From positions 3,660,001 through 3,692,000 of the forward strand of contig NC_010814.1 in assembly GCF_000020385.1 (NCBI RefSeq): a DNA stretch of 32,000 nt, in the 5' to 3' direction. The notes beneath the pieces are model-generated. The model saw nothing but the letters and a program-made list of their open reading frames with translations, was not told the origin of the DNA and made no database searches. Shown in pieces: positions 15,105 to 32,000 of the stretch (positions are counted from its first letter, which is position 1; every line of letters starts with the position of its first letter). A program made the position numbers and the translations under genes. This stretch comes from Trichlorobacter lovleyi SZ. Its GTDB lineage: Bacteria; Desulfobacterota; Desulfuromonadia; Geobacterales; Pseudopelobacteraceae.

Positions 15105-17894
15105 TCAGCGTTCCTGTTTCCTGAGCAGGGCCGTGGCCAGGGCCAGCAGAAGAGGCACAGCCAGCAACAGGGGCACAAATGATGCTTGGAGATCAGCAAA
15201 GCCGAGTCCCTTGGAAAACGCACCACGGGCGATAATCAGAAAGTAGGTTGTCGGATAAACGCTGCCGATTGCGGCCCCGGCACCTTCCAGCGAGGAAACC
15301 GGATGAGTCAGGCCAGAGAACTGCACTGCCGGCAGGAGGGTCAGAATAGCGGTGCCGAACAGGGCAGCGATCTGGCTGCGCATAAAGCTTGAAATTACCA
15401 GACCAAAGGCGGTTGCCGCAACCACGTACAAAAATGCTCCAGCCGTCAGGGCTGCAAAACTGCCTTTCAACGGCACCCCGAAGATAAAAATCGCCTGCAG
15501 GGTCAGCATCAGAAAGCTCAGCATGGCCAGTGTCAGGTAGGGGAGTTGTTTGCCCAGCAGAAACTCCAGCCGGGTCACCGGGGTGACATAGAGATTGACA
15601 ATCGAGCCCAACTCCTTTTCACGCACCACTGAAAGAGCGCTCAACATGGCCGGAATCAGCATCAAAAGGAGCGGAATGACTGCCGGCACCATTGCCACCA
15701 AGCTCTTGACATCAGGATTGTAGCGATAGCGGATCTCGATCTCAGCTGCGGAGGCCGTGGCCGATGCGCCCCGTTTTTCCCGGGCCAGGGACGTCAACCA
15801 CTGGGCATGCATCCCCTGCACATAACCTCGGATTGTTTCAGCCCGTTGCGGCATGGCGCCATCGATCCAGGCGCCAACGCTGACCGGTGTGCCCCGTTGC
15901 AGATCACGGGCAAAACCGGGCGGGATTTCGATGGCCAGGCTGATTTCACCGGCACGCATGCGGCGATCCAGATCTGCATAATCCTTAAGGGCCGGCCGCT
16001 CACTGAAGTAGCGTGAACCGGCAAGGTTGAGCAGATAATCACGACTGATCGGCGTCTGATCCCGGTCGAGCACGGCAAAGGTCAGGTTCTCCACATCCAT
16101 GGTAATGCCGTAGCCCATCACAAACATCAGGATCACGTTCCCCAGCAGGGCCAGGGTCAGTCGGATCGGATCACGCATGAGCTCCAGCGCCTCACGCCGG
16201 GCATAACTGAACAGACGCTGCAGACTGAAGAAGCCTGATTGGGCTGTTGGAATACCGGACTGAGAATGATTGAAGGCAAGAGAAGCATCGAGCGGTCCGG
16301 CAACGGCTTCAGTGGAGGCAGGTATTACCGTATCAATGGCCTCTTTCAGGTAGCCGATAAACGCCTCTTCCAACGTGTCTGCACCGCGAGCCGCCCTCAG
16401 CGCCGCCGGTGTGTCACTGACCAGCACCCGGCCGGCGTGCATCAGTGAGATCCGGTCGCAGCGTTCCGCCTCGTTCATGAAGTGGGTCGAGATAAAGATG
16501 GTGACCTTGTCCTGACGGGCAAGGTCGACCATGATCTGCCAGAAGGCGTCCCGGGCCACCGGATCAACCCCCGAGGTCGGTTCATCGAGGATCAACATCT
16601 CCGGGCCATGAATCATGGCCACCGCCAGCGAAAGGCGTTGGCGCTGCCCCAGCGGCAGGGCATCGGGCAAACTCTCCATCACCTGATTCAGCCCGAAGCG
16701 CTCCGCCATCCCGATAACACGGGCAGGGATCTCCGCTTCCGGCATACTGAAGAGACGTGCGTGCAGAACCAGATTCTGCCGCACCGTCAGCTCGCTGTAA
16801 AGCGAGAAGGACTGGGTCATGTAACCAACCCGGCGACGGGTTTCGATGTCGCGGGGATCCACTGGACGGCCAAAGAGCCAGGCTTCACCTGCGCTGGCCT
16901 GCAGCAGTCCGGTCAACATTTTCATGGTGGTGGTCTTGCCACAGCCGTTTGAGCCGAGAAAGCCGAAGATCTCCCCCTGGCCGATGCGGAAGCTGACCTG
17001 GTCAACAGCAACAAAATCACCGAAACGCATGGTCAGACCCTGGGCCTCAATGGCGGCCTCACCGTCGTCTTCAGCCTCCCGTGGCGGGATGCTGACCGGC
17101 CGGTACCCCTCACGCTGTACCTGGGGCAGCAGGGCAATGAACGCCTCTTCCAGGGTTGTGCTGCCGGTCTTTGCCAGCAGCTCTTGTGGGGTACCGCTGG
17201 CCAGCAGTTGACCGGCATTCATGGCGACCAGCCAGTCAAACCGGGCTGCCTCTTCCATGTAGGCCGTGGCAACCAGCACACTCATGCCGGGCCGACCGGT
17301 CCTGATCCGCTCAATCAGCTCCCAAAACTGGCGACGCGACAGGGGGTCAACACCGGTGGTGGGTTCATCCAGGATCAAGAGGTCGGGATCGTGGATCAGG
17401 GCACAGCAGAGCCCCAGTTTCTGTTTCATCCCCCCGGAGAGCTTACCGGCAGGCCGGTCTGCAAAGGGTGCCAGCCCGGTGGCCTGCAGCAGTTCGGCAA
17501 TGCGTCGTTCACGCTCCCGGCGGTCATGGCCGAACAGCCGGGCAAAGAACTCCACATTTTCAAAGACGGAGAGGGTTGGATAGAGGTTTTTACCCAACCC
17601 CTGCGGCATAAAGGCGATCCGGGGGCAGATCTCCCGGCGGTGCCGCCGGTCAGCCATGCTGCCGCCCAGCACCTCAGCCTGACCGGCCTGGATGGCCCGT
17701 GAACCGGCAATCAGAGAGAAGAGGCTGGATTTACCCACGCCGTCAGGGCCGATCACACCGACCAGACAGCCGGCCGGCAGTTCCAGGCTGATATCTGTCA
17801 ACGCCACCGTCTTGCCGTAGCGCAGACTGATCCCCTGCAGCCGTGCTACAGGCGGCAAAATCAGATGCCTGCTTGGTGTGGCAGCTCCGTTCAT
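15105..17894 (-). CDS. rbbA: fused double-ATPase/ABC-2 permease (RbbA/YhiH-like)
   Basis: Two ABC cassettes (Walker [10 protein letters not shown] and GSNGCGKTT; signatures LSGGMKQK and LPLGQRQR) followed by an ABC-2 membrane domain. ATG 17894 overlaps the HlyD-family stop (ATGA). Same architecture and neighbours as E. coli yhiI-rbbA-yhhJ. Confidence 0.85.
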
Positions 17895-18964
17895 TGCGGC
17901 AGTTTGATCTGCAGACGGGCTGGCCATGGCTTAGTGGCATCAAGCCGCACCCAGGCCACGCCGGGAAGTCCGGTCTTGACCTGGGTGATATGTTTTTTTA
18001 GCAACTCTACAGGAATCTGGGCCCTGATGCGGAACATCAGCTTTTCCCGTTCGCTGGTTGTTTCCACGGTTTTCGGAGTAAATTGGGCTACGTCGGCAAT
18101 AAAGGATGCCTTTGCCGGTATCACATACTGGGGAGCGGCATCCAGTACCAGCCGCACCTCACTGCCCAAGGCTACCTTGCCAGCCGCAGCCGTGGGTAGG
18201 AAAAAGGTCATGTAGACATCACTTAAGTCAACCAGGCTCAACACCCGGCCACCGGCGCCGACCACCTCGCCCAGCTGGGCCACCTTGTACTGCACCCGGC
18301 CGTCGCGGGGAGCTTTGAGGGCACTGTCCCGGATATCAGCCTGAATCCGTTCCGTATTTGCTTTTGCTGCACCAACAGCCGACTGCGCCCCAGCGATCTG
18401 GCTACGTGCCGTTATGATGGTTGCCTCGCTGGCGGCAATCTGAGCGCGAACCGCGTTTACTACAGCTTCTGCGCTTCTGAGCTGGGCACGATCATCATCG
18501 GCATCCTGTTGTGCTATTGCCCCATTGCCAACCAGCACTGATGAACGCTTTGCATGCTTGCGTGCTTTGTCAAGATCTGCTTCACGTTGTGCCAGTAACG
18601 CCAGTGCCGCTGATTTTTCACTTTCCCGTTGTGCCAGTTGGCTCTGTGCGGTAACCACCGAACTTTGCGCCTGTTGACGTTGCGCCACCGCTTCCCGGAA
18701 CTGGGCTTCAAGGGTATCGGTGTCCATTCTTGCAACCACCTGCCCGGCGGTCACAAACTCGCCCTCACGAACTAGAATCTCCTTTATTCGCCCGGCTATC
18801 TTGGCGGCAACGTCGATCTCAACCGCCTCTATACGACCGTTGCCGCTGACCAGACCTTCGTCATTGTCATGACGGAGAAACTTCTGCCAGACAACTACAC
18901 CAAGCACGCCTAAAACCAGTATTATTAAAGCCCTGATTAGCCATTTTTTCTGTTGTCCGGTCAT
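17891..18964 (-). CDS. HlyD-family membrane fusion protein (YhiI/YbhG-like)
   Basis: 357 aa with an N-terminal TM anchor, a lipoyl-like hairpin, a long Ala/Gln-rich coiled coil and a beta-barrel domain. GAGGGAGGG lies upstream of the ATG. Confidence 0.87.
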
Positions 18965-19000
18965 GGGAGCCCTCCCTCATTTCAGGTTCATCGATATTAC

Positions 19001-19006
19001 ATTATA
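19001..19006 (-). promoter_or_regulatory. candidate -10 box (TATAAT) for the HlyD-RbbA-YhhJ operon
   Basis: Perfect TATAAT on the minus strand 37 nt upstream of ATG 18964. No convincing -35 was found. Confidence 0.22.
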
Positions 19007-19022
19007 CTACTAAATTACCTTT

Positions 19023-20048
19023 TTACTCAGGAGCCAACAGATATCCGTTTTTGAATACCGTCAGACAGGCATCAACAATACGGGAGTCATAGGCGCTGCC
19101 GCGCCCCCGTTCAATTTCCTGCAAGGCGCACTCCGCTCCCTTGCCAGGGCGGTACGGCCGGTGGGACGACATGGCTTCAACCACATCAGCAACCCCCACT
19201 ATACGCGCTTCAAGGAGGATATCATCGCCAATCAGCCCTGCTGGATACCCGCTGCCGTCCATCCGTTCATGGTGCTGCTGAACAGCTTGTGCAATGGGCC
19301 AGGGGAACTCTATTTCCTGCAAAATTTCGTAACCGGCTTGTGGATGGGTCTTTATCAGTCCGAACTCCAGATCCGTCAACCGACCAGGCTTGCTCAATAT
19401 CTCGTTTGGCACATACAGCTTACCGATATCGTGGATCATTCCCGCTGTCAGGATGCCTTTAATCTGGTCATAGTCAAAACAGCCCATTTCGATAGCAATA
19501 GTCTTAGCCAGCTGTGCAACCCGCTCTTGATGGCCTGCCGTATAACGATCTCTTTTTTCTATTGCTGTGGCCAAGGCATGAACCGTTTCATCCACCACCC
19601 TCTTCATCTTTTCCAGGCTGCCTTTGAGCGCCGTTTCCAACGTTATTTTCTCTGTGATGTCAAAGAGAATAGCCACGGTACCGATAATACTGTTTTCAGA
19701 ATCAAATAAAGGCGCTGCCGAATAACTGATGCATATAGCCGAACCGTCCCGCCTGGTAGCGCTTAGCGGCATTGAGGTGAATACCTGCTTCTGCAACGTC
19801 TGTCTGCGAAGCTCCTCATATGCCTCCCCGGCATCAGCAGAAAGCACCTTGATTGAACGGCCAATTACCTCTTCTTCCCGATAGCCGGTGGACTCTTCAG
19901 CTGCTTTATTCCAAAATTGTATCTTGCCATCAAGGTCGATGCCAATAATGCCGAGGGGCGAGGACTTCAGCAATGCCGACAGGCCTTGGGTATTCATTCT
20001 GAGATCAGGTTGCCAGATTCCCGTATTTTCAAAATGTTCTATTTTCAT
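19023..20048 (-). CDS. PAS-domain HD-GYP phosphodiesterase (c-di-GMP signalling)
   Basis: 341 aa with an N-terminal PAS domain (IGIDLDGKIQFWNKAAEESTGY), then HD (GMIHDIGK) and HHERMDGSGYP motifs. Confidence 0.88.
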   Translation of the reverse strand: MKIEHFENTGIWQPDLRMNTQGLSALLKSSPLGIIGIDLDGKIQFWNKAAEESTGYREEEVIGRSIKVLSADAGEAYEELRRQTLQKQVFTSMPLSATRRDGSAICISYSAAPLFDSENSIIGTVAILFDITEKITLETALKGSLEKMKRVVDETVHALATAIEKRDRYTAGHQERVAQLAKTIAIEMGCFDYDQIKGILTAGMIHDIGKLYVPNEILSKPGRLTDLEFGLIKTHPQAGYEILQEIEFPWPIAQAVQQHHERMDGSGYPAGLIGDDILLEARIVGVADVVEAMSSHRPYRPGKGAECALQEIERGRGSAYDSRIVDACLTVFKNGYLLAPE

Positions 20049-20075
20049 AGACGCCCCAGAGCTTAACCAGTTCTC

Positions 20076-20207
20076 TTAGTGCTTTAAAAGCAGATAAATC
20101 AGATTTATCGGCCAACCGGGCGACGGTTCTTGCGCCAAATGCCAGATGGCAGTTCCAGCTGCCAGCAGTGCAATGATAATATAAACTACCATTCTCGATG
20201 GTTTCAC
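20076..20207 (-). CDS. possible 43-aa single-TM small protein
   Basis: A GTG at 20207 is preceded by GGAGG at 7-nt spacing. The product is (M)KPSRMVVYIIIALLAAGTAIWHLAQEPSPGWPINLIYLLLKH. It is below the ORF-track cutoff and has no homology evidence. Confidence 0.22.
   Translation of the reverse strand: MKPSRMVVYIIIALLAAGTAIWHLAQEPSPGWPINLIYLLLKH
20093..20109. promoter_or_regulatory. perfect 8-1-8 palindrome GATAAATC-A-GATTTATC, candidate operator
   Basis: Read directly. It lies 45 nt upstream of the HD-GYP start codon in a 222-bp spacer. Confidence 0.3.
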
Positions 20208-20270
20208 TGTATCGCCTCCTGTCTTTCCTTGCCATTCAGTCTGACCTGGTTTCAAAAGTTAGAATCAGGT

Positions 20271-21041
20271 TTACGCTCCGATCACGTTGTAACCACTGTC
20301 CACATAGTGGATCTCGCCGGTAACGCTGCAGGCCAGATCACTACAGAGATACACTGCTGATCGGGCGATATCTCCTTGGGTGATATTACGGCAAAGGGGA
20401 GCCTTTGCCGCAACATGACCAAACACCTGGCTAAAGCCAGTTATACCAAATGAGGCCAATGTACGGACCGGACCTGCAGAAATTGCATTCACCCGAATTC
20501 CTTCACTACCGGCTGCCACAGCCAAATACCGCACCAGGGCTTCAAGTGCCGCTTTTGCCACACCCATGACATTGTAGTTCGGAAAAACCTTTGCAGCGCC
20601 GTAATAACTGAGTGTTAGAACAGCAGTATTTCGTCCCCGCATGACAGGCAATGCTTCTTTCATGATGCCTAGAAGAGAATAGACGCTGATATCCAGCGTG
20701 GCGGCAAACCCTTCACGGCTGGTATTAAGGATAGTTCCCGCCAGTTCACTTTTTTCAGCAAAGGCAACCGCATGGATAATGATATCCAGAGCCCCCCATA
20801 ACACTTCAATTTTACGGAGAACCTCTTTTATCTCTTCATCGTTTGTAATGTTACAGGGATGTATCAGTTTTGCATCCAATGATTCAGCCAACAAACGCAC
20901 CCGCTTCTCATGGGCTTTATCAGCGTAGGTAATGGCCAGTTCCGCGCCTTGTTCATGAAAGGCCTGTGCAATTTCCCAAGCGATACTCTTGTCATTAAGC
21001 ACACCGAAAACAAGCGCCTTTTTACCTTGTAGCAAGAGCAT
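20271..21041 (-). CDS. fabI: enoyl-[acyl-carrier-protein] reductase (NADH)
   Basis: 256 aa with GKKALVFGVLNDKSIAW, the catalytic region SYYGAAKVFPNYNVMGVAKAALE, and RVNAISAGPVRTLA. Confidence 0.92.
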   Translation of the reverse strand: MLLLQGKKALVFGVLNDKSIAWEIAQAFHEQGAELAITYADKAHEKRVRLLAESLDAKLIHPCNITNDEEIKEVLRKIEVLWGALDIIIHAVAFAEKSELAGTILNTSREGFAATLDISVYSLLGIMKEALPVMRGRNTAVLTLSYYGAAKVFPNYNVMGVAKAALEALVRYLAVAAGSEGIRVNAISAGPVRTLASFGITGFSQVFGHVAAKAPLCRNITQGDIARSAVYLCSDLACSVTGEIHYVDSGYNVIGA

Positions 21042-21114
21042 AGAAAGTCACCTCAAGTCTCTCTTCAACGCACCTTAATTCCATGTAACCTGCCTCAGCT
21101 ACAGCATGTTATCA

Positions 21115-22167
21115 TTAAAATCTATAGCCGACGCCGCCCATGATAACGTCGGTATCCCTGTCATAGTTGGTTACAATCCGATTCCAGGAGGCGCGTAAGG
21201 ACCAACGTGATGTAAGATGATAGCTCCCCGTAAGAGTGCTTATTGCTGAGATGACCCGGTCACTGTCCTGATAGTGGTTCGCCTGCTGGTCTATGGCAAG
21301 ATATGCGCCTGCACCAAGACCTAGACTTATTCGTTCATCCATAAAATTCTTGACCACCCAGAGCTGACTGGCCACGCCATCCCGCCTGATCAAACGGTTA
21401 TCTCCCTCGTGGAGCCAGGACAGGGTCCAGTCCAGATAGTTAAGGAGCCTGCGCCGATACTCAATGCTCAGCGCTGTTGAACGTTCAGAGTCAAAACTGT
21501 TGGTGATAGTCCGGCCGACAAGCAACGTTATTTCATTATTACATGTCTGATCCCAACGTTCCTGCCGATCATAAGAAGGTTTTGGCTGGCTTGGTTTGTC
21601 CAGTTGATAGCCGACCCCCACAAGGGCCGACACGGTATTCATCCGACCGAAGGTTTGTATCCAGTTGGCGCGCAGCTGAAAAAGCCAGGGTGTTTCTGTC
21701 CTCAGAATCGACGCAAGGCTGAATGCGGCTCCAAATCCATGTTCATTTGTATAGGCGGTACTGCTGGTTGACGGGACTGTTGTATCAAAATAATAATAGG
21801 GACCAACACCTACTGACAACGCCAGACGCCGCTCAACGACATCCGTATTCATCCATAGTTGCAGAGAATGGCCGTCTCGATGGTGTGCAGGGATATGTCC
21901 TTCGTTCAGATAGGATAGGCTTGCAGTAAAATGTTCGTTAAGTTGTTCTCGGTATTCCAGTTGCCAGGAGTACGACGAATCGTTTTTCTCCACATTCTGA
22001 CTCTGTACCATTCCACCAAGACCAAACAGCTCATCAGCAATGGCCGCAGTAGCCGTGCATTGAAAAAGAAGGACCGTCAGGGCACAGCTCACACCATATA
22101 ACGCGGGCTTGCACAGTCGCAGATGACAAGCGTGCTGGTGAAATAAATTGAGGTTGCTCTCTGTCAT
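21115..22167 (-). CDS. outer-membrane beta-barrel protein with an internal tandem duplication, function unknown
   Basis: Signal peptide ending AIA/DE. There are two homologous ~140-aa halves (residues ~46-189 and ~212-350), each ending in an OMP-type terminal strand (VGVGYQL and GGVGYRF). Confidence 0.6.
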   Translation of the reverse strand: MTESNLNLFHQHACHLRLCKPALYGVSCALTVLLFQCTATAAIADELFGLGGMVQSQNVEKNDSSYSWQLEYREQLNEHFTASLSYLNEGHIPAHHRDGHSLQLWMNTDVVERRLALSVGVGPYYYFDTTVPSTSSTAYTNEHGFGAAFSLASILRTETPWLFQLRANWIQTFGRMNTVSALVGVGYQLDKPSQPKPSYDRQERWDQTCNNEITLLVGRTITNSFDSERSTALSIEYRRRLLNYLDWTLSWLHEGDNRLIRRDGVASQLWVVKNFMDERISLGLGAGAYLAIDQQANHYQDSDRVISAISTLTGSYHLTSRWSLRASWNRIVTNYDRDTDVIMGGVGYRF

Positions 22168-22207
22168 TTGGCTCCCTCGATGTCACTGGTGAGGAAACTT
22201 GCAGCTG

Positions 22208-22762
22208 CTAAAAATTCCAACTGATCCCGATCATATGCATATCGACTCCGGGATTTGGAGTGCAGCTGGTATAGAGTATGCGATTATTCGACAGGTGCTG
22301 GAGACGATAGCTTACCCCAAGCCCCCCCGTAAACCGGTAAGAAAGCCCCACATAGGCACCCCATAAAAGGATACTTCCGAAATCCTGTTGGCCGAACTGA
22401 CGTCTGTCCAGAAGATTGATATTGACGCCCGCCTCCAGCGCTATGCCATTTCCCGGCCTGTTGAAGGAGAGACCTGTTCCTGCTGAACCAATGAAGCCGG
22501 TTTCATTGCCGCCAATCAGAGCCCCAGCTGCTGTGTTTAGCTGAGGTTCCAGGCCCCAACCTGAAGATGTCCGCCAGCTCCAGGGCAGGCCATATACGGC
22601 AAAGACTTCATACTGATGGAAATATTCGCGTTTTGGACCAGCCTGAATACCCAACCGCACACCGGCCTCCTGCCAGTCTGCCTGTACAGTTAGCGCTGCA
22701 AGTGTCACACAAATGTGTATTACGAACAGAATGGTGAACCGCACCCGCTTTCTCTTAAACAT
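22208..22762 (-). CDS. pagL: PagL-like lipid A deacylase / acyloxyacyl hydrolase family outer-membrane protein
   Basis: 184 aa with a signal peptide, a small barrel, the catalytic-type motif YRLQHLSNN (His-x-Ser-Asn), NPGVD and a terminal ...GISWNF. Confidence 0.68.
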   Translation of the reverse strand: MFKRKRVRFTILFVIHICVTLAALTVQADWQEAGVRLGIQAGPKREYFHQYEVFAVYGLPWSWRTSSGWGLEPQLNTAAGALIGGNETGFIGSAGTGLSFNRPGNGIALEAGVNINLLDRRQFGQQDFGSILLWGAYVGLSYRFTGGLGVSYRLQHLSNNRILYTSCTPNPGVDMHMIGISWNF

Positions 22763-22827
22763 AGTGCTGGACCTTTCCGTAAACTACGGTATCTTTGGTT
22801 TTCAGCAGCTCACATCATAGACATCAG

Positions 22828-23638
22828 TCAGTTCTTGGTAATTCGCTCAGAGCTCGCGAGGCGCTTATTGGTTATCAACAGTTTTTTGAATTTTTGTCCT
22901 AATACTGTTGCAGCTGGGTAAAGCGACCCCTCAATCCGTTTCAGCTCGTCCTGTTTTAATAACGCTATGATCTGTCGCTCTCCTTGCCAGAGCTTGATAA
23001 AACGTTCCTCATCAATAAACCAATCAGATTGGTCGCCACGCTTGCTGCCGAATTCAAGCTCCCCCCTGCCCCCAACGACCACGACCCGCTGCCTTGTATA
23101 AAACGGCAGTGATTGTTCATAGCCGAAACTCACCAATACACCCTCTTTTCTCAGCAGTTGTCCTGCCTTTTGGCCCAATTCTCGTGATGATTTTTTTAAC
23201 GCAATCCGCTCCAGCACAAACTGCTGCCCCACCACCTCCAACAGGTAGGAACCACACAAAAGCCCGATGAGCAACAGCACGACACTTTGTTTGCGGGAAG
23301 CCAAAAACACGGTCATAGCCATACCAATAAAGATCAAGCCCAATATCCCACCTGCTGTTGGCGTCAGTATGGCAATTTTCGTAACCAGACGGTTGTCAAC
23401 AGACACCCAGCCCTGACGCACCAATAGCGGAACCAAGGCCGGCAACCAGGAGTAAATCACACACCCAACCGCACCAACTGTCAGCACCACCATCAGGCTC
23501 AGGTTTTCCGCCTTAAATGTTGTTGACGTCTCACCGTTTGCGAGCCGAACAAACATGATGCCAATCAGCATGGCAACCGGCGGGAATATCGGCAAAATGT
23601 AGGGAATCAGTTTTGAGTGTGATGCTGAAAAAAAGACA
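22828..23638 (-). pseudogene. arnT: ArnT-like (GT83/PMT-family) lipid A glycosyltransferase, C-terminal fragment
   Basis: This frame, read from the left direct-repeat copy, gives VFFSASHSKLIPYILPIFPPVAMLIG..., matching the E. coli ArnT block FFSxxKGKLPTYIL, and a C-terminal GELEFG... soluble domain. It is separated from its N-terminal part by the IS element. Confidence 0.85.
23623..23638. repeat. 16-bp direct repeat (target-site duplication), left copy: tgctgaaaaaaagaca
   Basis: Identical to 24968-24983 and immediately flanks the IS inverted repeat. Confidence 0.88.
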
Positions 23639-24967
23639 GCATTGTCCGGTTAGGGACTTGCATGTGCTGGGTATTCTGTTGAAGTTTCTGTTTTTGCATC
23701 GTTTTCATATTCAGCCATCATTTGTATGATTTCGTTGTGTATGGCAATTCTCAGTTCTCTGACACGTTGAATACTGACTTTTTCCTGATGTTCTTCATGG
23801 CAGTAAATGGCCAGTAACAGATAGGTGATCAATCCACCCATAATCTGCGCCATCAAGCCATTGGGACTGCGAGCTATCAGGTGGTACACCTTGAGGTGCT
23901 GCTTCCACCAGCCAAAGAAGATCTCAATGTCCCATCTGAGCTTGTAGATGAGGGCTATTTCTTCAGCTTTCAGGTCAAACCGGTCTGTGGCAACATAGAA
24001 ATCCTTGTTCTCCACCTTGTAGCCGATGACACGAACTGGCTTTTCTGTCTGGTTTTGTCCTTTGGTTCCCAGAAGGCATTCTACGTCCAGAAAGACATGG
24101 CTGCCTTCAAGAAGTTCCCGCTCTTTCAGAACCGTCTTTCTGGTGGCCTTTCTGATACGGCAGACAAAGTGTTTCTCAGCCTCCTGCCACTCATCGAAGT
24201 TCTTGTGGCACTGGTAGTAGCGATCCATAACGCCGGTCTGCCCAGACTTCAGGATCTTGGCAACAAAGGGGCGTTCATCAGCCTTGCCTGCAGACAGAAA
24301 GAGCTTTTCAGGAATGCCTCTATTCAGGTCAAAACCAACATGTACCTTGGCCTTGTGTGCGCCGTCCCGGTAATCAGCCCACTGCATGGAGGCCATGGCA
24401 TCGATCAGTGAGCCGTCAATGCCGATCAGGTCACCCCATTCTGGATGGGCAGCAGGAAGCAACTTCTTTGCCTGGCCTTGCAGATAGTGATACATCTCGA
24501 TCAACTGCTGCACCCCACGGGTATTCATGGCCTCAAAAAAGGCGCCCCGACTTACCCCTTCGGGTGGTGCAATATGGTCCTTGGCAAAAGCATCTTGATC
24601 GAGCACCTGCAGTAACTCACGTCCTGACTGGTGGTCGTGAAGATGGAACCAGGTAAGTGAAGACAATTGGTGTTCAAAGGTAAAGGTCAATGGGCGGTTA
24701 CTCCTTGATTTCAGAGGTGTCAAAGAGGGTAACCCATCAACCAGCGGTTTGAATAGTCTTGAGTACACAAGCGGCTTTCCATGACGGCAGAATGGTCTGA
24801 AATGACGTGGCATACACAACCTCGCAATATCAATATCTTACGAGGTGGCGGCGCGCCGATTTTGCACTCAAAGTCAAGCAAAATGTACTTCATCATACTA
24901 TTTTTATTGATGTTTTAAAGAACCATTCTACTGCCGTGCTTATGAATGCATATTTCTAACCGGACAC
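23639..24967 (-). mobile_element. IS4-family insertion sequence (about 1.33 kb)
   Basis: Imperfect terminal inverted repeats share the TGTCCGGTTAG core: left 23639-23662 (gcattgtccggttagggacttgca), and right 24947-24967 (reverse complement gtgtccggttagaaatatgca). It carries a single DDE transposase ORF, is flanked by a 16-bp direct repeat, and interrupts the arnT-like gene in frame. Confidence 0.87.
23650..24819 (-). CDS. IS4-family DDE transposase
   Basis: 389 aa with candidate DDE residues in IGIDGS and GVMDRYY, and the IS4 Y-2-R-3-E-6-K signature YKLRWDIEIFFGWWK. The stop codon lies within the left inverted repeat. Confidence 0.88.
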   Translation of the reverse strand: MCMPRHFRPFCRHGKPLVYSRLFKPLVDGLPSLTPLKSRSNRPLTFTFEHQLSSLTWFHLHDHQSGRELLQVLDQDAFAKDHIAPPEGVSRGAFFEAMNTRGVQQLIEMYHYLQGQAKKLLPAAHPEWGDLIGIDGSLIDAMASMQWADYRDGAHKAKVHVGFDLNRGIPEKLFLSAGKADERPFVAKILKSGQTGVMDRYYQCHKNFDEWQEAEKHFVCRIRKATRKTVLKERELLEGSHVFLDVECLLGTKGQNQTEKPVRVIGYKVENKDFYVATDRFDLKAEEIALIYKLRWDIEIFFGWWKQHLKVYHLIARSPNGLMAQIMGGLITYLLLAIYCHEEHQEKVSIQRVRELRIAIHNEIIQMMAEYENDAKTETSTEYPAHASP

Positions 24968-25927
24968 TGCTGAAAAAAAGACAAAGATGAAGGTAACCCA
25001 GATAAATAAAAAGAATCGTGGGTCCGTCTCTCCCTGAAAGCGGGTCTGCAGACCATGCCAAAGCGCTCTGAAGGCATAGAACGACCAGGGCAACATGGTA
25101 AGCAGAAAGATAGGGACAAAAAACCATAACGGTTGATAGCGACCATGGGCTGTGGTCAGAAATCGCTCAAAATGTTCATGTACAAAGAAGAATTTTGCAA
25201 AATCAGGGTTTTGCTGCGACACCAAGATGAACCAAGGTGATGTCACCACAACCAGCAACAAGATTCCGCCAGGGAGATTCATCTCGCGCAGCAGATGCCA
25301 GGAACGGTTAAACATCAGATATAACAGGATAATGCAGGCAGGGAACAACACGCCTATCAACCCTTTTGTGAGTACGGCCAGTCCACAGAAGAGATAGAAA
25401 AGATAGTAATACATTTTCTTACGTTGGTGCTTATATGATGCAATCATAAAACTGCAAAGTGCAGCAGTCAGGCAGAATGTTAGCGTCATATCGGTCAGAT
25501 TGATACGCGATTGCACCACAAATCCGGTAGATGCACCTAATACAATTGCCGAGTTGATTGCCTCACTGCGCCCCCAAATGGCACGTACCGTACCGTATAC
25601 CAGCAGGACCGTCATTAAACCCGCCAGAGCACCTGGAAGGCGCGCAGCAAACTCATTCATTCCAATAAGCTTCAGCGACAGTGCTGTCAGCCAATAATGG
25701 AGGGGTGGTTTTTCAAAGTAGGCGACGTAATTGAGAGTTGGCGTAATAAAGTCGCACCGTTCAAGCATTTCCCGAGGGATTTCTGCATAGCGACCTTCAT
25801 CTGGCTCAATCAGCCCAATCCGTCCCAGCAGCAAAAAAAAGGCACTTCCAAAGACTGAACAAACAACTAAAAGGTCACTCCAAACCGGATAATTACGTGC
25901 AAACAAATATGATTTGATCACTTTCAT
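24956..25927 (-). pseudogene. arnT: ArnT-like (GT83/PMT-family) glycosyltransferase, N-terminal fragment
   Basis: PDEGRYAEIPREML and YFEKPPLHYW match the ArnT blocks PDETRYAEISREML and YFEKP, along with NPDF...FFVHEHFERF and PLWFFVP. The reading frame runs 3 codons into the IS (..FFSA-VSG-stop). Confidence 0.87.
24968..24983. repeat. 16-bp direct repeat (target-site duplication), right copy
   Basis: tgctgaaaaaaagaca, identical to 23623-23638. Confidence 0.88.
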
Positions 25928-25943
25928 TGTTACACCATCTTCG

Positions 25944-26171
25944 TTAGCTGTTTAAATTTTTGGTGCTACATCCAATTGCCTGTTCGTTAAACCCGTAAGC
26001 CTTTCTGACCACATAGCGTGGGCGCTTACGTACTTCCTGATAGATACGTCCTACATACTCACCCACAATGCCGATCCCGAAGATAACGATGCCAATGAAG
26101 AAAAGCAGGATAGCAAACAGGGTAAAAACGATTTCTCCGTTGCTGCGCCCAAAGGCCGCCAGGATGGTCAT
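25944..26171 (-). pseudogene. C-terminal remnant of an ArnC/DPM1-like GT2 polyprenyl-phosphate glycosyltransferase
   Basis: 75 codons holding only the last TM helix and the tail GEYVGRIYQEVRKRPRYVV (ArnC: GEYIGRIYTDVRARPRYFV). The catalytic GT-A domain (~250 aa) is absent, and the frame is closed immediately upstream by TAG. Confidence 0.7.
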
Positions 26172-26183
26172 ATGCTAGTCCCC

Positions 26184-26747
26184 CTATTTCGTAACGCACT
26201 GTTCCACCTGCATCAGCTCAGACGGATAAGGGCTTGCAATTCGATTTAACTCCTGCAGAATTGGACGCTCACCTCGCAGCCAACTATCCAGTTCTCTCTG
26301 ATGCAACAGCACTGGCATTTTGTTGTAGAGTGGTGCAAGCAACACATTTGCCGCTGTGGTGAGCAGAATAATGCCTTCACGGATGTCACCGCCCTTGCTT
26401 TGCCAGCCCTCGCAAATTGCTGCGCAATGCATTAACGAGCCATCCTTCATTGTGACCTCGTACCAAATATTGCTGCTGCATACACGGTAACCATTTATCG
26501 GGACAATGCACTGGCAGACCTTGAACACGGTTGACTTAAACCATCTTTTATCGATCGTCAGCGCGTCTGCAGCACCCAGCATACGTCTCACCATGGCCTG
26601 ACGCTTCCCACACTGGTCATGCCGTACAATCAGACCCTGTTTGCCATATTTGATGCTGTCGTCGGCGACCCAGTCAGAAGGCAACTGCACCCCATAGACG
26701 GTGTTCAACTGTTCTGTCGGGTCTGTAATGGTAAACTTAAGCTGCAT
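26184..26747 (-). CDS. SRAP (YedK/HMCES, DUF159)-fold protein lacking the catalytic residues
   Basis: 187 aa from ATG 26747. MQLKFT aligns with the family N-terminus MCGRF. The blocks RWFKSTV, CIVPINGY, DGSLMHCAAI and EGIILLTTAANVLLAPLYNKMPVLL are colinear with E. coli YedK. This is a hand alignment from memory. Confidence 0.55.
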   Translation of the reverse strand: MQLKFTITDPTEQLNTVYGVQLPSDWVADDSIKYGKQGLIVRHDQCGKRQAMVRRMLGAADALTIDKRWFKSTVFKVCQCIVPINGYRVCSSNIWYEVTMKDGSLMHCAAICEGWQSKGGDIREGIILLTTAANVLLAPLYNKMPVLLHQRELDSWLRGERPILQELNRIASPYPSELMQVEQCVTK

Positions 26748-26751
26748 AGAG

Positions 26752-26964
26752 TCACGTTGCCTTGCCAAAAGACTCGCCGCTGTATAATTGGCAATCTTCG
26801 CGCCAGAGGCAGTCAATTTGCCCGCACACCGCTGAACTGCCAGTGCCAAAACAGCTCTGATTTCCTTCTGCATGCTGAATTGAGTGAATCAACTCGGCCT
26901 TTGACAGCCTTCCCGCTTTGATACCGCGCTCTTTAGCCATCTCCCTGATAATGCTTACTTTCAT
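26752..26964 (-). CDS. SAP/Rho_N-like mini-protein with a C-x8-C-x4-C-x5-C motif
   Basis: 70 aa. GGGAGGA lies 7 nt upstream of ATG 26964. The N-terminus MKVSIIREMAKERGIKAGRLSKAELIHSIQ resembles SAP/Rho N-terminal helix-loop-helix domains, followed by CFGTGSSAVCGQIDCLWREDC. Confidence 0.6.
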   Translation of the reverse strand: MKVSIIREMAKERGIKAGRLSKAELIHSIQHAEGNQSCFGTGSSAVCGQIDCLWREDCQLYSGESFGKAT

Positions 26965-27016
26965 TGCTATTCCTCCCTTTTCAGGTAATCCTCGGCTGCC
27001 AGCGGCCCACACAATT

Positions 27017-27034
27017 CGATTGAACGTTCATTCG
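27017..27034. promoter_or_regulatory. 18-bp palindromic operator candidate, site 1 (cgattgaacgttcattcg)
   Basis: The perfect 10-bp core TGAACGTTCA sits within a 16/18 palindrome, 52 nt upstream of the mini-gene ATG. Its reverse complement matches site 2 at 16/18 positions. Confidence 0.5.
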
Positions 27035-27077
27035 GCACATTCAAAAGACTATTGCCAATTTTTGTGGCCCATACCTT

Positions 27078-27647
27078 TTAAGGCTTTAGGGCATTCCAAC
27101 AGGCCTCGACTGTTTTTTCAATCAGAAGATCATCAAGTGTTATAAGCCCAAAGATATGATCACGACATATAAGCAGCAAGGGACCAAACGCCAGGGCAAA
27201 AATTACCGGCAAGGGCAAATCTTTAATAAGACCCTGTTGTCGGGCTTCTTCAAAAAGTGAAGAGATAAGGTCGTTTTTTTTTCCCAACATCCTTTCCCGT
27301 CTGCTGGCAACCCCATAGGGAGAATTATGAAACTGTTCAATAAAACGAGATTTCATAGGGAATACGATAAAAGAGCTTACCAGCATCCGTCCGATATGCA
27401 GGAAGCGCTCCTGTACAGAGCTATCTTCGCAATACCCTTGCCTGATGGACTCAAGTAATTGTTCTTCAAGAAGGGCATAGGTAGCCTCAATAAGCGCGTC
27501 TTTGCTTTCAAAGTAATGGTAAATGGTACCTGCTGCCACACCGGCACGCTTGGCAATCCCGGACATCGGTGTCCCATGAAATCCATTTTCAGCAATCAGC
27601 TCCATGGCAGCCTGTATCACGGCCATACGCTTATCAGTGTTCTCCAT
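27078..27647 (-). CDS. TetR/AcrR-family transcriptional regulator
   Basis: 189 aa with an N-terminal HTH (GFHGTPMSGIAKRAGVAAGTIYHYFESKDAL) and a helical ligand-binding domain. GGGAG lies upstream of the ATG. Confidence 0.9.
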   Translation of the reverse strand: MENTDKRMAVIQAAMELIAENGFHGTPMSGIAKRAGVAAGTIYHYFESKDALIEATYALLEEQLLESIRQGYCEDSSVQERFLHIGRMLVSSFIVFPMKSRFIEQFHNSPYGVASRRERMLGKKNDLISSLFEEARQQGLIKDLPLPVIFALAFGPLLLICRDHIFGLITLDDLLIEKTVEACWNALKP

Positions 27648-27667
27648 TGGTCACTCCCACATTTTAC

Positions 27668-27685
27668 CGAATGAACATTCAATCT
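27668..27685. promoter_or_regulatory. operator candidate, site 2 (cgaatgaacattcaatct)
   Basis: Lies 20 nt upstream of the tetR ATG and 2 nt downstream of the candidate -10. Near-identical to the reverse complement of site 1. Confidence 0.5.
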
Positions 27686-27686
27686 A

Positions 27687-27714
27687 AACATATCAAACAA
27701 TGTGGTGGTGTCAA
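27687..27714 (-). promoter_or_regulatory. candidate sigma-70 promoter for tetR (TTGACA-16-TATGTT)
   Basis: -35 at 27709-27714 and -10 at 27687-27692 on the minus strand. The operator candidate covers the predicted transcription start. Confidence 0.35.
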
Positions 27715-27742
27715 GCACCTGTTCCAAAGAATATGTTACTTA

Positions 27743-28678
27743 CTACAGCCAATCCGTCAGCATTACACCGATGCCAATCCGGTTGGTGTGATGGTTATAA
27801 TCCACCAGACTTTCACCATAACCGTTGAAATACTGGACATACCCCTTCAATTTCTTGTGCAGGGGAAAGCTCCAGTCCAACTGTACCGCTCCTTTATTCC
27901 CGGAGGTACGCAGGTTGTTGCGCAGCATCAGTGTCAGGGTATGCTCCCTGATTTTTTGTAACAGCTGTAGTTCTCCGTATCCGTAATATTTTTCCATGTG
28001 GGGATTTTCATCGTCCTTTGCCGCTTCAGGGATGCGGAACCACGGTTTGAGTACGATATAGGTGTCTCCCCTGCTGAACGGAAAGGTGGCCACAATCCGG
28101 TTCCAACTGCGAGAAAGCGGCTTTGAGCGTCCATTGGACTGATGGTTGAAACCAATTGACATCACTTGGCTGGTTACACCGTAAAACTCATAGCCGGTAT
28201 TGAAGGCCAGAAAGAGCTCCGGCTCAAAGTTGATCTCCCTGAACGGGGCTGAAATTTTACTGTTATAGGCCTGCCAAAATGCAAGTTGACTGTAGGCCGC
28301 ATACAGGGTGCCGTTATCGCCGAAGATATTTTCCCAGAGCGGGGTTTTGATACTCAGCTGGAATTTAACTTCAAGATTGTCCAGTGTCTCATTGCTGTCT
28401 GTCAACCCGTTATAGGCGTTGTTGTTCGGGGATGTATTATAGGTAACCGGCAGCAGGTAGTTGGATTTATGGGGCAAAATAGAAAACAGCAGGCCGGAGG
28501 CCTGCTGTTCCTGTTGCATCCGTTTATGCAAAGCGGTCGTGGCAGAGGGGAGCTCCCGTTCCGGTGACAACGGCAACCCGGGTTGGGTGCCCGGACTTGC
28601 ACAATCCGCCTGTCCCGTTTGCAGTGCTGCAAACAAGAGCATCACCATCATCAATCTTAAACGAGGTAAAGGCCTCAC
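27743..28678 (-). CDS. pldA: outer-membrane phospholipase A
   Basis: 311 aa with a signal peptide. The active-site block [20 protein letters not shown] matches E. coli OMPLA NHDSNGRSDPTSRSWNRL. The GTG start overlaps the upstream OMF stop (GTGA at 28675-28678). Confidence 0.9.
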
Positions 28679-30108
28679 TTGGCAGCCCCGCCCCCCAGTA
28701 CCTTGTAGGCGGTGGCCTGATTGGCCAGTCTGGCCAGCCGGACCGTGATCAGGTTCTGCTGGGCAGCATACAGGGCACGTTGTGCAACGATCACGGTCAG
28801 GTAGCTGTCCACTCCCCTGTCGTAGCGGGCCTGCGAAAGACGATGGCTTTCAGCCGTGGCATCGGTCAGCGACTGTTGGGCAGCCAGCTGGTCATTAATA
28901 GTACCACGCTGGGCCAGGGTATCAGCCACCTCCCGGAAGGCGGTCTGGATCGCCTTTTCGTACTGGGCCACGGCAATATCACGATCTGCCTTGCTGACAT
29001 CCAGACCGGCAATATTCCGGCCGGTGTCGAACAGCGGCACACTGATCTGGGGCACAAAATTCCAGGCCACCGAACCGGGCTGGAACAGATCGGTCAGCTT
29101 GGCACTGGCCGTACCAAAACCGGCACTCAGGCCAATCCGGGGGAAGAAGGCGGCCCGGGCAGCGCCAATGTTGGCGTTGGCCCCTTTCAGCCGATGTTCG
29201 GCAGCCAGGATGTCAGGCCGTTTCAGCAGCACCTCGGACGGCAGCCCCACCGACAGTTCCTGCACTGCCGTCAGGCTGCCCAGCTCTGTTGGCAACAGGT
29301 CGGCCGCTACCGGTCTGCCCACCAGCAGGCCAAGGGCATTCTCATCCTGAGCCACCAGAGTGGTGTAGCGGGCGATATCCACCCGGGCCGCATCCACGGC
29401 GGTTTGGGCCTGATAGAGGTCAAGGGCCGAGGTAATCCCGGCATCATAGCGATGTTTGATGAGCTGGTAGTACTCCTGCTGACTTGCCAGGGTATCACGG
29501 GTAATCTTGAGCCGCTCCCGGTCAGCGGCCAGGGTCAGCCAGGCATTGGCCACTTCGGCCACCAGGCTGATCTGGACACTGTTTCTGGCCTGTTCGGTTG
29601 CCAGGTACTGCTCCAGGGCCTGGTCTTTCAGACTCTGCACCCGGCCGAACAGGTCCAGCTCGTAATTGCTGACCCCCAGACCGACGTTATACTGTTCACT
29701 GACACGGGCCCGGCCGGTTGAGGAGAGGTCAGCCGGGGTGCGCTGAATGGTGGCCCCGGCAGTGCCGTTGATGGTCGGCAGCAGGTCGGCCCGCTGAATC
29801 CGGTACTGGGCACGGGTCTTCTCAATGGTCAGGGCTGCCACCCGCAGGTCACGGTTGTTGGCCAGGGCCAGTTCAATCACCTTCTGCAGGCGGGGCTCCA
29901 CAAAAAACTCCCGCCAGGGTACCTCGGCCAGCGGTTTCTGATCAGCCTTGGCAGTCTCGGCCTTATAGGCCTCGCCGCTGGGCCAGCCAGCTGTAACCGG
30001 CGCATCAGGCCGGGTGTAGCTGGGGGCCATGGTGCAACCGGACAAGGCACCGGCCAGGAGTGCTGCACAAAAAACCGAAGCAACAGGAAATGACGCTCGT
30101 TTTTTCAT
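28675..30108 (-). CDS. RND efflux outer-membrane factor lipoprotein (NodT/OprM family)
   Basis: ATG 30108 gives [25 protein letters not shown] (lipobox), followed by two OEP repeats. It starts 2 nt after the RND pump stop. Confidence 0.9.
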
Positions 30109-30109
30109 A

Positions 30110-32000
30110 TCAGTGCCCCTCCTGTACAGCAGTCGGCAGTGCATGGCCCGCATCCTTTTTGTACTTCTTCCGCCCAAACAAGCGCGATACCATCACAAAG
30201 AAAAACGGAATAAAGATCAGGTCAATAAAGGTGGCGGACAACAGACCGCCGGTTACCGCCGTGCCGATGGCGTTCTGGGCGGCCGCCCCCGCCCCTTTGG
30301 TCAACGCCAGCGGCAGGGTGCCGAAGAAGAAGGCCAGCGAGGTCATGATAACCGGACGCAGCCGGATCTTGACTGCCGACAGGGTCGCATCAACCAGTTC
30401 ATGCCCCTGATGCAGCTGCTCCTTGATAAACTGGATGATCAGGATCGCGTTCTTGGTGGAAAGCCCCACCGTGGTCAGCAATCCGATCTGCAAATAGACG
30501 TCGTTGGGCAGCAAACGCAAGGTCACCGCAGTCACCGCACCCACCAGCCCCAGCGGCAGCATCAACAGGTTCACAAATGGGATGGTCCAGCTTTCATACA
30601 GGGCCGCTACTGCCAGGAACACCACCAGGAGCGAGATGGCGTAAAGCGCGGGCGCCTGCGCCCCGGCGTTTTTCTCTTCATAGGAAAGGCCGGTCCATTC
30701 ATAGCCAATACCGGACGGTAGTTTGGCCGCCATCTTTTCCATTTCGGCCATCGCCTCTCCGGTACTGATCCCGGCAGCTGCCTGCCCCATGATCTCAACC
30801 GACGGAATACCGTTGTAACGTTCAAGACGGGGCGAACCGTACTGCCAGCGGGCCGTGGCAAAGGCCGAGAACGGAACCATATCCCCTTTATCATTGCGCA
30901 CATACCATTTACCGATATCCTCAGGCAACATCCGGTACTTGGCATCGGCCTGCAGGTAGACCTTCTTGACCCGGCCATTTTCGATAAAGTCGTTGACATA
31001 GGAACTGCCCCAGACCGTAGCCAACACTTCGTTGATGCTGGCAAGAGAGACCCCCAATGCACCTGCCCGGACATCATCAATATCCAGCTTGAACTGGGGT
31101 GAATCATCCTGCCCGTTGGGACGTACCGCCACCAGCTTCTTGTTCTGCATGGCCATGCCCAAGAGCATGTTGCGGGCCTCCATCAGTTTATCATGGCCAA
31201 GACCGCCGCGATCCTGCAGCTGGAAGTCAAAACCGTTGGCCTGCCCCAACTCCACCACCGCCGGTGGTGAAAAGGCAAAGGCCAGGCCATCCTTGATCTT
31301 TGAGAAAGCCCCCATTGCGCGACCGGCAACGGCTGGCGCCTTCATATCTTTGGTTGGACGCAGCTTCCAGTCCTTCAATTTGACAAAGGCCAGGCCCATA
31401 TTCTGCCCACTACCGGCAAAGCTGAAGCCGGCCACGGTGATGATCGCCTCAACCGTCTTCTTTTCCTTTTCAAGAAAATGCTGCTCAAGCTGCTCGACCA
31501 CCTTCAGGGTTCGCTCCTGGGTAGCCCCGGCAGGCAGCTGCACCTGGCAGATGATAAAGCCCTGGTCTTCATCCGGCAGGAAGGCAGTCGGGAGACGGTG
31601 GAAGAAAAGCATCATGGCTGCCACGATGCAGCCGTACACCACCAGATAGCGGATCGGCTTGTTGAATGAGCGTCCGACAATTCCCTCATATTTCCCTCTG
31701 GCCCAGTCAAATTTGCGGTTAAACCAACGGAAGAATTTGCAGAACGGCCCGCACTCACCCGGTTCATGCCCCTTTTCAACCGGCTTCAACAGCGTTGAGC
31801 AGAGTGCCGGCGTTAGAATCAGGGCCACCAACACCGACAGGATCATGGCCGCGATGATGGTGATTGAAAACTGGCGGTAGATCACGCCGGTGGAGCCGCC
31901 AAAGAAGGCCATCGGCAGGAAGACCGCCGACAGTACCGTGGCGATACCCACCAGGGCGCTGGTGATCTGGCCCATGGATTTGATAGTGGCGTCGTGAGGC
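30110..32000 (-). CDS. RND multidrug efflux permease (AcrB/MexB family), C-terminal ~630 aa; the N-terminus lies beyond the window
   Basis: [41 protein letters not shown] matches the AcrB TM4-5 region. The frame stays open to position 32000. Confidence 0.92.

Follow-up and report, generated by a model that had tools for sequence, protein, structure and literature searches.

The question raised by this locus of Trichlorobacter lovleyi SZ is what a SRAP-family gene is kept for when its product lacks the residues of the SRAP chemistry. We analysed a stretch of 32,000 nt (contig NC_010814.1 of assembly GCF_000020385.1, positions 3,660,001 to 3,692,000 of the forward strand), hereafter called the window, to which all the coordinates below refer unless another locus is named. 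The gene in question is the following (residues in YedK numbering):

26184..26747, minus strand: SRAP-like coding sequence, 187 amino acids (aa), ACD97133.1 / WP_012471454.1 / B3E230, without Cys2, Asn75, Arg77, Glu105, His160 and Arg162

To our knowledge, everything known of SRAP proteins concerns the shielding of abasic (AP) sites. In a functional SRAP, the free N-terminal amine left after Met removal and the Cys at residue 2 form the thiazolidine nucleophile. We consider the product of this gene to be probably a selected pseudoenzyme, which derives from a canonical SRAP/YedK-type protein, is part of a TetR-controlled envelope/efflux unit and acts by binding. The original prediction, made from the letters alone, had described a SRAP homologue without any of the chemistry, either a non-covalent binder of single-stranded DNA (ssDNA) or lesions or a repurposed domain. 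Its description of the gene was exact: the open reading frame (ORF) is uninterrupted over 187 codons of the minus strand, the product begins with MQLKFTIT and the ATG is 4 nt past the TGA of an upstream 70-aa gene (tgaCTCTatg).

The SRAP family assignment is already in NCBI ("SOS response-associated peptidase family protein") and in UniProt/UniRef ("Abasic site processing protein" for B3E230), hence it is not new; the novelty lies in recognising a non-catalytic clade that is conserved, its TetR/envelope context and a likely mis-annotation. Precisely, B3E230 almost certainly should not bear the label "abasic site processing protein", which is untenable without Cys2. We also observed that one member of the 90% cluster of B3E230, HRG14116.1, is on a 3.6-kb contig assigned to a 'Macellibacteroides fermentans' metagenome-assembled genome (MAG), which is probably a mis-binned Geobacteraceae contig.

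Homology to SRAP and loss of its functional residues

The product matched the Pfam SRAP family (PF02586) significantly, with 62 bits against a cutoff of 27.1 and E 7.4e-17, the local match covering profile positions 69-206. With the single sequence, phmmer found PDB entry 2f20 (E 3.4e-08) and only weakly YedK and HMCES; with the family profile the E-values against PDB were 2.6e-22 for 2f20, 1.8e-12 for HMCES and ~3e-09 for YedK. The hhalign comparison of 12 clade members (the homologues described in the next section) with 40 canonical SRAPs gave a probability of 99.93% (E 1.4e-35) over 184 columns, that is, over the full length. This alignment opens at M1 versus M1, so that Gln2 is opposite Cys2, in agreement with the colinearity with the MCGRF N-terminus that had been read by eye. 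The blocks recognised in the same way (RWFKSTV, CQCIVPINGY, DGSLMHCAAI and EGIILLTTAAN...KMPVLL...W) were recovered by MAFFT, HMMER and hhalign. A genuine SRAP homologue without any of the chemistry is what Pfam, hhalign and the alignments uphold. In PHROGs only an unnamed SRAP-type family matched, and among the PADLOC defence models both the SRAP-like and the 70-aa proteins were unmatched.

As for the fold, AlphaFold2 (AF2) run on an alignment of nine clade members and three canonical SRAPs (A3) gave a model with pLDDT 85.7 and pTM 0.84. Foldseek against PDB returned for this model only SRAP structures in the top 21 matches (TMq 0.65-0.81), among which 1zn6, YedK, 2f20 (TMq 0.81), HMCES, 2aeg and 2bdv, the next match having E 0.1. 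With the clade-only alignment the pLDDT was 39.5, so the structure prediction speaks for the SRAP fold only when the canonical rows are included; the secondary structure from residue ~78 on was the same in both runs. Since the AF2 model is not independent of the canonical sequences, the retained fold rests mainly on sequence homology.

We considered as well the longer ORF of 229 aa starting at 26873, by which Cys, Glu and His might have been rescued: it has the same Pfam score, no N-terminal match and none of the three residues regained. The 42 codons upstream of the SRAP-like ATG (26748-26873) are open in all the window-clade loci and not in other lineages, and they overlap the 3' end of the 70-aa gene, whose frame is better conserved (85% versus 76% identity to locus L001); this extension is probably not translated. 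The string RCAGKLTAS within it resembles MCGRxTLTAS and was treated as a chance match.

To compare single residues, the clade was aligned with YedK (its sequence checked against PDB) and with ~130 full-length representatives, and conservation was calculated from the 103 of them bearing Cys2, here called canonical. The positions, in YedK numbering, were the following:

C2: 100% in canonical SRAPs; Q/L/H/R/Y/V in the clade
R4: 93% in canonical SRAPs; K/Q/R/D in the clade
P40: 98% in canonical SRAPs; Y/S/Q/R in the clade
N75: 94% in canonical SRAPs; G/S/T in the clade, or, in the hhalign register, D in the window protein and N in P0007-P0010
R77: 87% in canonical SRAPs; Arg in none of the alignments, which place here Ala or an Asp conserved in the clade
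E105: 96% in canonical SRAPs; lost within a deletion of 3-4 residues in four alignments, V/I/L in the fifth
W106: 90% in canonical SRAPs; deleted, or C/F/R/M/I in the alignment placing V/I/L at E105
T149: 100% in canonical SRAPs; retained in 12 of 14 clade members
H160: 93% in canonical SRAPs; Y/H/R/Q/E in the clade
R162: 98% in canonical SRAPs; K/E/M/T/I/R in the clade

Among the checked residues Thr149 is the sole survivor. The three substitutions originally read at the catalytic positions (Cys2 to Gln, Glu to Val, His to Tyr) are right as losses and do not hold as a conserved new set, the positions varying among the orthologs. Cys2 is lost and the window protein has Gln, one of six residues found there. 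The catalytic Glu is lost too, and the reading as Val depends on the alignment: in the MAFFT alignment A2, in HMMER and in hhalign GFYEW becomes GY---R, with Glu105 and Trp106 deleted, and in the large MAFFT alignment the two positions fall on Val89 and Cys90. At the His160 position (HxRxP) the window protein does have a Tyr, Tyr141, where relatives have H/R/Q/E, and at the Arg162 position it has Lys.

The loss of the Asn and Arg of INARVE was confirmed, the region of the motif being the one hit by a deletion: 16 residues are gone between strand 4 and the NAR helix, corresponding to Loop45 and the NAR motif region, and neither W67/W68 nor R77 has a counterpart in this protein. The two registers of this loss conflict, in that MAFFT drops Loop45 (WGLxPxWAKD...), whereas hhalign keeps a degenerate WGLxPxW and drops KD...INARSET; the window-protein residue at Asn75 (INARxE) is Gly58 by MAFFT and Asp66 by hhalign. 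The C-terminal PVSxxVNxxxNDDP tail is also absent.

The SRAP cysteine has been described as "absolutely conserved... always the second amino acid" (PMC3765255). In YedK, C2A abolishes crosslinking and each of W67A, W68A, R77A, T149A and R162A abolishes ssDNA binding (PMC6821365). Because Cys2 is absent, AP-site crosslinking by this protein is predicted to be negative. The loss of YedK's ssDNA-binding determinants (Loop45 with W67/W68 and R77 gone, the R162 position variable, only T149 left) therefore argues against the non-covalent ssDNA or lesion binder that had been proposed, and binding of ssDNA in the YedK manner appears unlikely from the sequence. Charge is no better conserved, the isoelectric point (pI) going from 5.4 to 9.0 across the clade, with 8.5 for the window allele.

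Selection on the clade

A word-index search found five close homologues with 58-93% identity. The profile search added P0007-P0010 (39-53% identity), among them the homologue of a second T. lovleyi genome, CP058409. P0014 and P0015 came from the exhaustive search, and P0162/P0163 and three loci of Geobacteraceae MAGs from later ones. No member of the clade was found outside Geobacteraceae. Its ~14 alleles, down to 37% identity, are all open, with no stops or frameshifts even in lineages with saturated dS. In P0014, which begins with MYGRL... and keeps Gly3-Arg4, the sequence suggests a simple Cys-to-Tyr change (TGY to TAY) as first step.

Among six distinct alleles, Nei-Gojobori dN/dS was 0.14-0.34, with pN < pS in every pair (Fisher p from 3e-4 to 4e-18). 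The gene is kept by purifying selection and is not decaying, and the uninterrupted ORF noticed originally is hence a maintained one. Constraint is uneven along the protein: omega is 0.42 at residues 1-48, the least constrained part and the former nucleophile end, and 0.16 at residues 97-144, where it is strongest. Conservation is specific to the clade at Q21, P23, W26, G35, R49-Q50-A51, D61, C108, G125, H149, E152, R161, P162, Q165 and R169. The best-conserved part is that of the C-terminal helices and last strand (residues ~149-181), more so than in canonical SRAPs; the most conserved blocks, in residues 154-187, have a mean top-residue frequency of 0.71-0.73, versus 0.37-0.46 in canonical SRAPs.

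Other metagenome SRAP homologues are without Cys2, i.e. P0024 (MIGRF), P0034 (MFSRF), P0061 (MSDRF) and also P0044, with a MVARL start among these. Like this clade, P0024, P0034 and P0061 are without Cys2 and at least two of Asn, Glu and His; unlike it, they are full length (220-224 aa), group elsewhere and are single representatives. P0017, in which Glu is lacking, may have a Cys2 behind a mis-called start (…NVCEGF).

The TetR-linked locus and its palindromes

Around the SRAP-like gene we considered the following features:

27661..27714, minus strand: pair of overlapping matches to sigma-70-like promoters, upstream of the TetR gene (TTGACA-16-TATGTT and TTTAGA-16-TAAAAT)
27669..27684: second palindrome copy, GAATGAACATTCAATC (plus strand), over the predicted TetR promoter
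27078..27647, minus strand: TetR-family regulator ACD97135.1 (TetR_N + TetR_C_10/HI_0893_C)
27018..27033: 16-bp operator-like palindrome GAATGAACGTTCAATC, located after the TetR stop and before the 70-aa/SRAP-like unit
26752..26964, minus strand: 70-aa gene ACD97134.1, "SAP domain-containing protein", whose N-terminus is SAP/Rho_N-like (helix-extension-helix) and whose tail has four Cys
25944..26171, minus strand: arnC reduced to its last 75 codons, lying 12 nt past the SRAP-like stop
22208..25927 region, minus strand: arnT split by an insertion sequence, with the N-terminal part at 24956-25927, a DDE transposase (DDE_Tnp_1) at 23650-24819 and the C-terminal part at 22828-23595
22208-22762, minus strand: pagL

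The fullest gene order recovered is TetR - MFP - RND - OEP - PLA1 - TetR - [70-aa] - SRAP-like - ArnC - ArnT - PagL - OMP - SDR - PAS/HD - MFP - ABC. The TetR gene is directly upstream of the SRAP-like unit in every recovered locus reaching that far. The downstream genes vary, arnC/arnT being absent in L001, pagL too in L007, and arn through SDR in L021; despite these losses, the SRAP-like gene is kept in all of them. In strain SZ arnC and arnT are pseudogenes, and in strain CP058409 the SRAP-like gene is followed by a full-length arnC and by arnT. When JGI metagenomes were scanned with the TetR alignment, no canonical Cys2 SRAP was found in the same TetR-adjacent slot; the SRAP-like gene was there in only two close orthologous loci, and TetR homologues of at most 56% identity were in unrelated contexts.

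Translational coupling of the 70-aa and SRAP-like genes is likely: the former has a strong ribosome-binding site, and the short spacing between its stop and the SRAP-like ATG is 3 nt in L018. Its product has the conserved tail CFGT...C...C.W.E.C and a weak Rho_N/SAP resemblance (E 0.0011, below cutoff). The gene is confined to the window clade and the P0007 lineage; it is absent in L012, L015, L021 and L022, and a search for a remnant in the lineages without it detected none.

In the spacer from TetR to the SRAP-like gene one block, GAATGAATATTCAATC, is conserved across lineages, the rest being poorly conserved; in the window copy the central AT is CG, with the palindrome preserved. The GAATGAAYRTTCAWTC palindrome is at both positions, TetR promoter and spacer, in the window, L015, L021 and L022 (in L022 as a perfect 16-mer). 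There is a third copy ahead of the paralogous TetR-MFP-RND-OEP operon, and the two paralogous TetR promoters and the SRAP-like spacer have this palindrome in common (also L015 1689-1704; L022 1724-1739). In a shuffle test the observed palindrome counts were reached 0 times in L015, L021 and L022 and 1 time out of 100 for the window. We consider these palindromes a candidate TetR operator for a small efflux/envelope regulon. No terminator-like site was found in the window from the TetR promoter to the SRAP-like gene end, nor in L015 between the genes from TetR to pagL, and the unit may be co-transcribed. The literature on CecR/YbiH was uninformative for a comparable operator.

SOS-associated SRAP neighbourhoods are linked to LexA, DinB, ImuB-C, UmuC or Ku genes (PMC3765255). 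None of these was found in the 32-kb window or in the related loci, nor did the window hold any other repair gene, and matches to a Geobacter-type LexA box pattern were at chance level, with none near the SRAP-like gene. An Rfam scan of the window gave nothing. On the flanks (15105-18964 and 30110-31975) there are a YbhG/YbhF/YbhS-type MFP with a double-ATPase ABC protein and an ABC2-permease, and the RND pump with its OEP; further along the window there are an Omp85-family gene, an ABC exporter (ABC_membrane + ABC_tran), an acyltransferase and regulators. Taken together, the 32 kb resembles a region devoted to envelope maintenance.

The comparison with L015 (CP058409.1) shows the locus (window 15500-32000) to be a mosaic produced by recombination between Trichlorobacter genomes: protein identity is 96-97% for OEP/TetR (dS ~0.1), 69% for PLA1, 61-65% for PagL/SDR/PAS-HD and 40% for the SRAP-like protein, whose gene gives no detectable nucleotide alignment.

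A probable pseudoenzyme among its alternatives

Of the two functions originally proposed, the repurposed domain fits better than the ssDNA binder, given the TetR-operator and envelope-locus context that had not been seen then. In the pseudoenzyme reading, the ancestor would be a canonical SRAP, and the descendant appears to keep the SRAP core without Cys2 thiazolidine crosslinking. A TetR dimer would bind the palindromes at its own promoter and before the SRAP-like unit; an envelope or toxic-compound signal would induce the unit, and the SRAP-like protein so made would bind a protein partner or a small ligand, with no DNA chemistry. The layout would be that of TetR, operator, the 70-aa gene where present, the SRAP-like gene and sometimes arnC-arnT-pagL, in an efflux/outer-membrane/lipid-A-remodelling locus. 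A role as anti-repressor or as accessory of a regulator we put forward tentatively, as rather unlikely. It is also speculative, and in our judgement doubtful, that the scaffold, so far known only as a crosslinker that sacrifices itself at DNA lesions, was re-used in Geobacteraceae as a non-DNA part of a TetR-controlled envelope/efflux stress response, either as an anti-repressor/adaptor on the paralogous TetRs or as a ligand-binding/catalytic protein around Trp26, Cys108, His149, Glu152, Arg161 and Arg169.

Some points weigh against a selected pseudoenzyme in a TetR-controlled unit. The confident AF2 model depends on its three canonical rows. The SRAP-like gene evolves ~2x faster than its neighbours: versus strain CP058409 its dN/dS is 0.30, compared with 0.10-0.18 for the neighbour genes, which is compatible with weak constraint, and its dN is 0.54, compared with 0.25-0.32 for PagL/SDR/PAS-HD. 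The argument for TetR binding to the palindromes comes from their position and conservation, and at the spacer palindrome no sigma-70-like promoter match was found, roadblock or promoter control being both possible there. Lastly, with Thr149 kept and a mildly basic window allele, some nucleic-acid affinity is possible.

This last point leads to the first alternative, that is, a non-covalent binder of nucleic acid (ssDNA, lesion or RNA), possibly aided by the coupled 70-aa SAP/Rho_N-like protein. Thr149 and the TTxxN strand are kept, the pI of the window allele would suit it, and the 70-aa protein, "SAP domain-containing" in UniRef, has the weak resemblance mentioned above. We consider this binder improbable: the positions lost or variable here are those at which single YedK mutants bind no ssDNA (PMC6821365), the place of Arg77 is taken by a clade-conserved Asp or by Ala, the pI is not a property of the clade, four lineages have the SRAP-like gene without the 70-aa gene and the repair/SOS context was not found. 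A new chemistry was considered too, in which Cys108, His149 and Glu152 with the inherited Cys80 would form a new active or ligand site for a non-DNA substrate tied to the lipid-A/phospholipid/efflux genes. The three residues are invariant in the clade, their frequencies at the canonical columns being 0.02, 0.15 and 0.11, respectively, and the gene sits in a PLA1/ArnC/ArnT/PagL/RND locus; against this, C108 stands where a core strand otherwise has a buried-type Phe/Met and is probably structural, and there is no precedent or cofactor motif, so that we regard such a site as very improbable.

The ORF could also be a functionless relic on its way to becoming a pseudogene, surviving by chance or as a spacer/leader for the downstream genes. 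All the ancestral functional residues are lost, the gene evolves faster than those around it, arnC/arnT are pseudogenes next to it in strain SZ and its 3' end varies with the downstream deletions. All this is opposed by a pN far below pS in all the pairs, by the absence of stops and frameshifts at 37-58% identity with dS saturated, by the retention of the gene where arn, pagL and SDR are deleted and by a C-terminal end (residues 154-187) more conserved than in canonical SRAPs. The relic is the best-refuted of the three alternatives, and we give it hardly any credit.

A selected clade without the Cys, the Glu/His/Asn set and the main ssDNA contacts would mean that the SRAP fold has at least one other use, and it offers a natural "dead" control for SRAP biochemistry. 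It also exposes an over-annotation, since the names given to B3E230 would spread to every genome carrying the clade. The candidate TetR operator would define in T. lovleyi a regulon linking efflux, OMPLA and lipid-A modification genes. The original prediction knew of no described subfamily of this kind, and our literature search likewise found nothing on Cys-less, pseudoenzyme or non-catalytic SRAPs or on this accession.

In layout, the locus resembles the NalC - PA3720 - ArmR module of Pseudomonas aeruginosa, whose TetR-family repressor governs a small operon next to it, the product of this operon being a protein anti-repressor of a second efflux regulator. Here there are two paralogous TetRs with one operator type, one of them followed by the 70-aa/SRAP-like unit; the analogy is of layout only, with no sequence relationship. 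As for the SRAP/DUF159 family itself (PF02586; E. coli YedK, human HMCES), homology extends over the whole length, the predicted strand/helix order is the same and the core motifs RC-I/V-P-x-G, DGS...AG, TTxxN, MP-V-L-L, WL and PYPSELM are in common. Unlike YedK and HMCES, this protein lacks Cys2, Asn75, Glu105, His160, Arg77, Arg162 and Pro40, has the 16-residue Loop45/NAR deletion and a 3-4-residue beta-thumb deletion, ends without the PVSxxVN tail and is encoded in a TetR-linked envelope locus, not in a SOS/repair neighbourhood. The best solved relative, whether judged by sequence (phmmer and profile) or by superposing the model (TMq 0.81, rmsd 3.0), is BT_1218 of Bacteroides thetaiotaomicron (PDB 2f20, identity ~20%), which, unlike this protein, retains LNAR, GYFEW and H-R-MP in the aligned stretches. 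There is also a likeness in kind with SulA and ImuA (inactive RecA paralogues) and ImuB (inactive Y-family polymerase; PMC3765255), scaffolds likewise selected after the loss of catalytic residues, presumably for binding or regulation; those proteins remain in DNA-damage pathways, whereas this one is found in a TetR/efflux/lipid-A locus.

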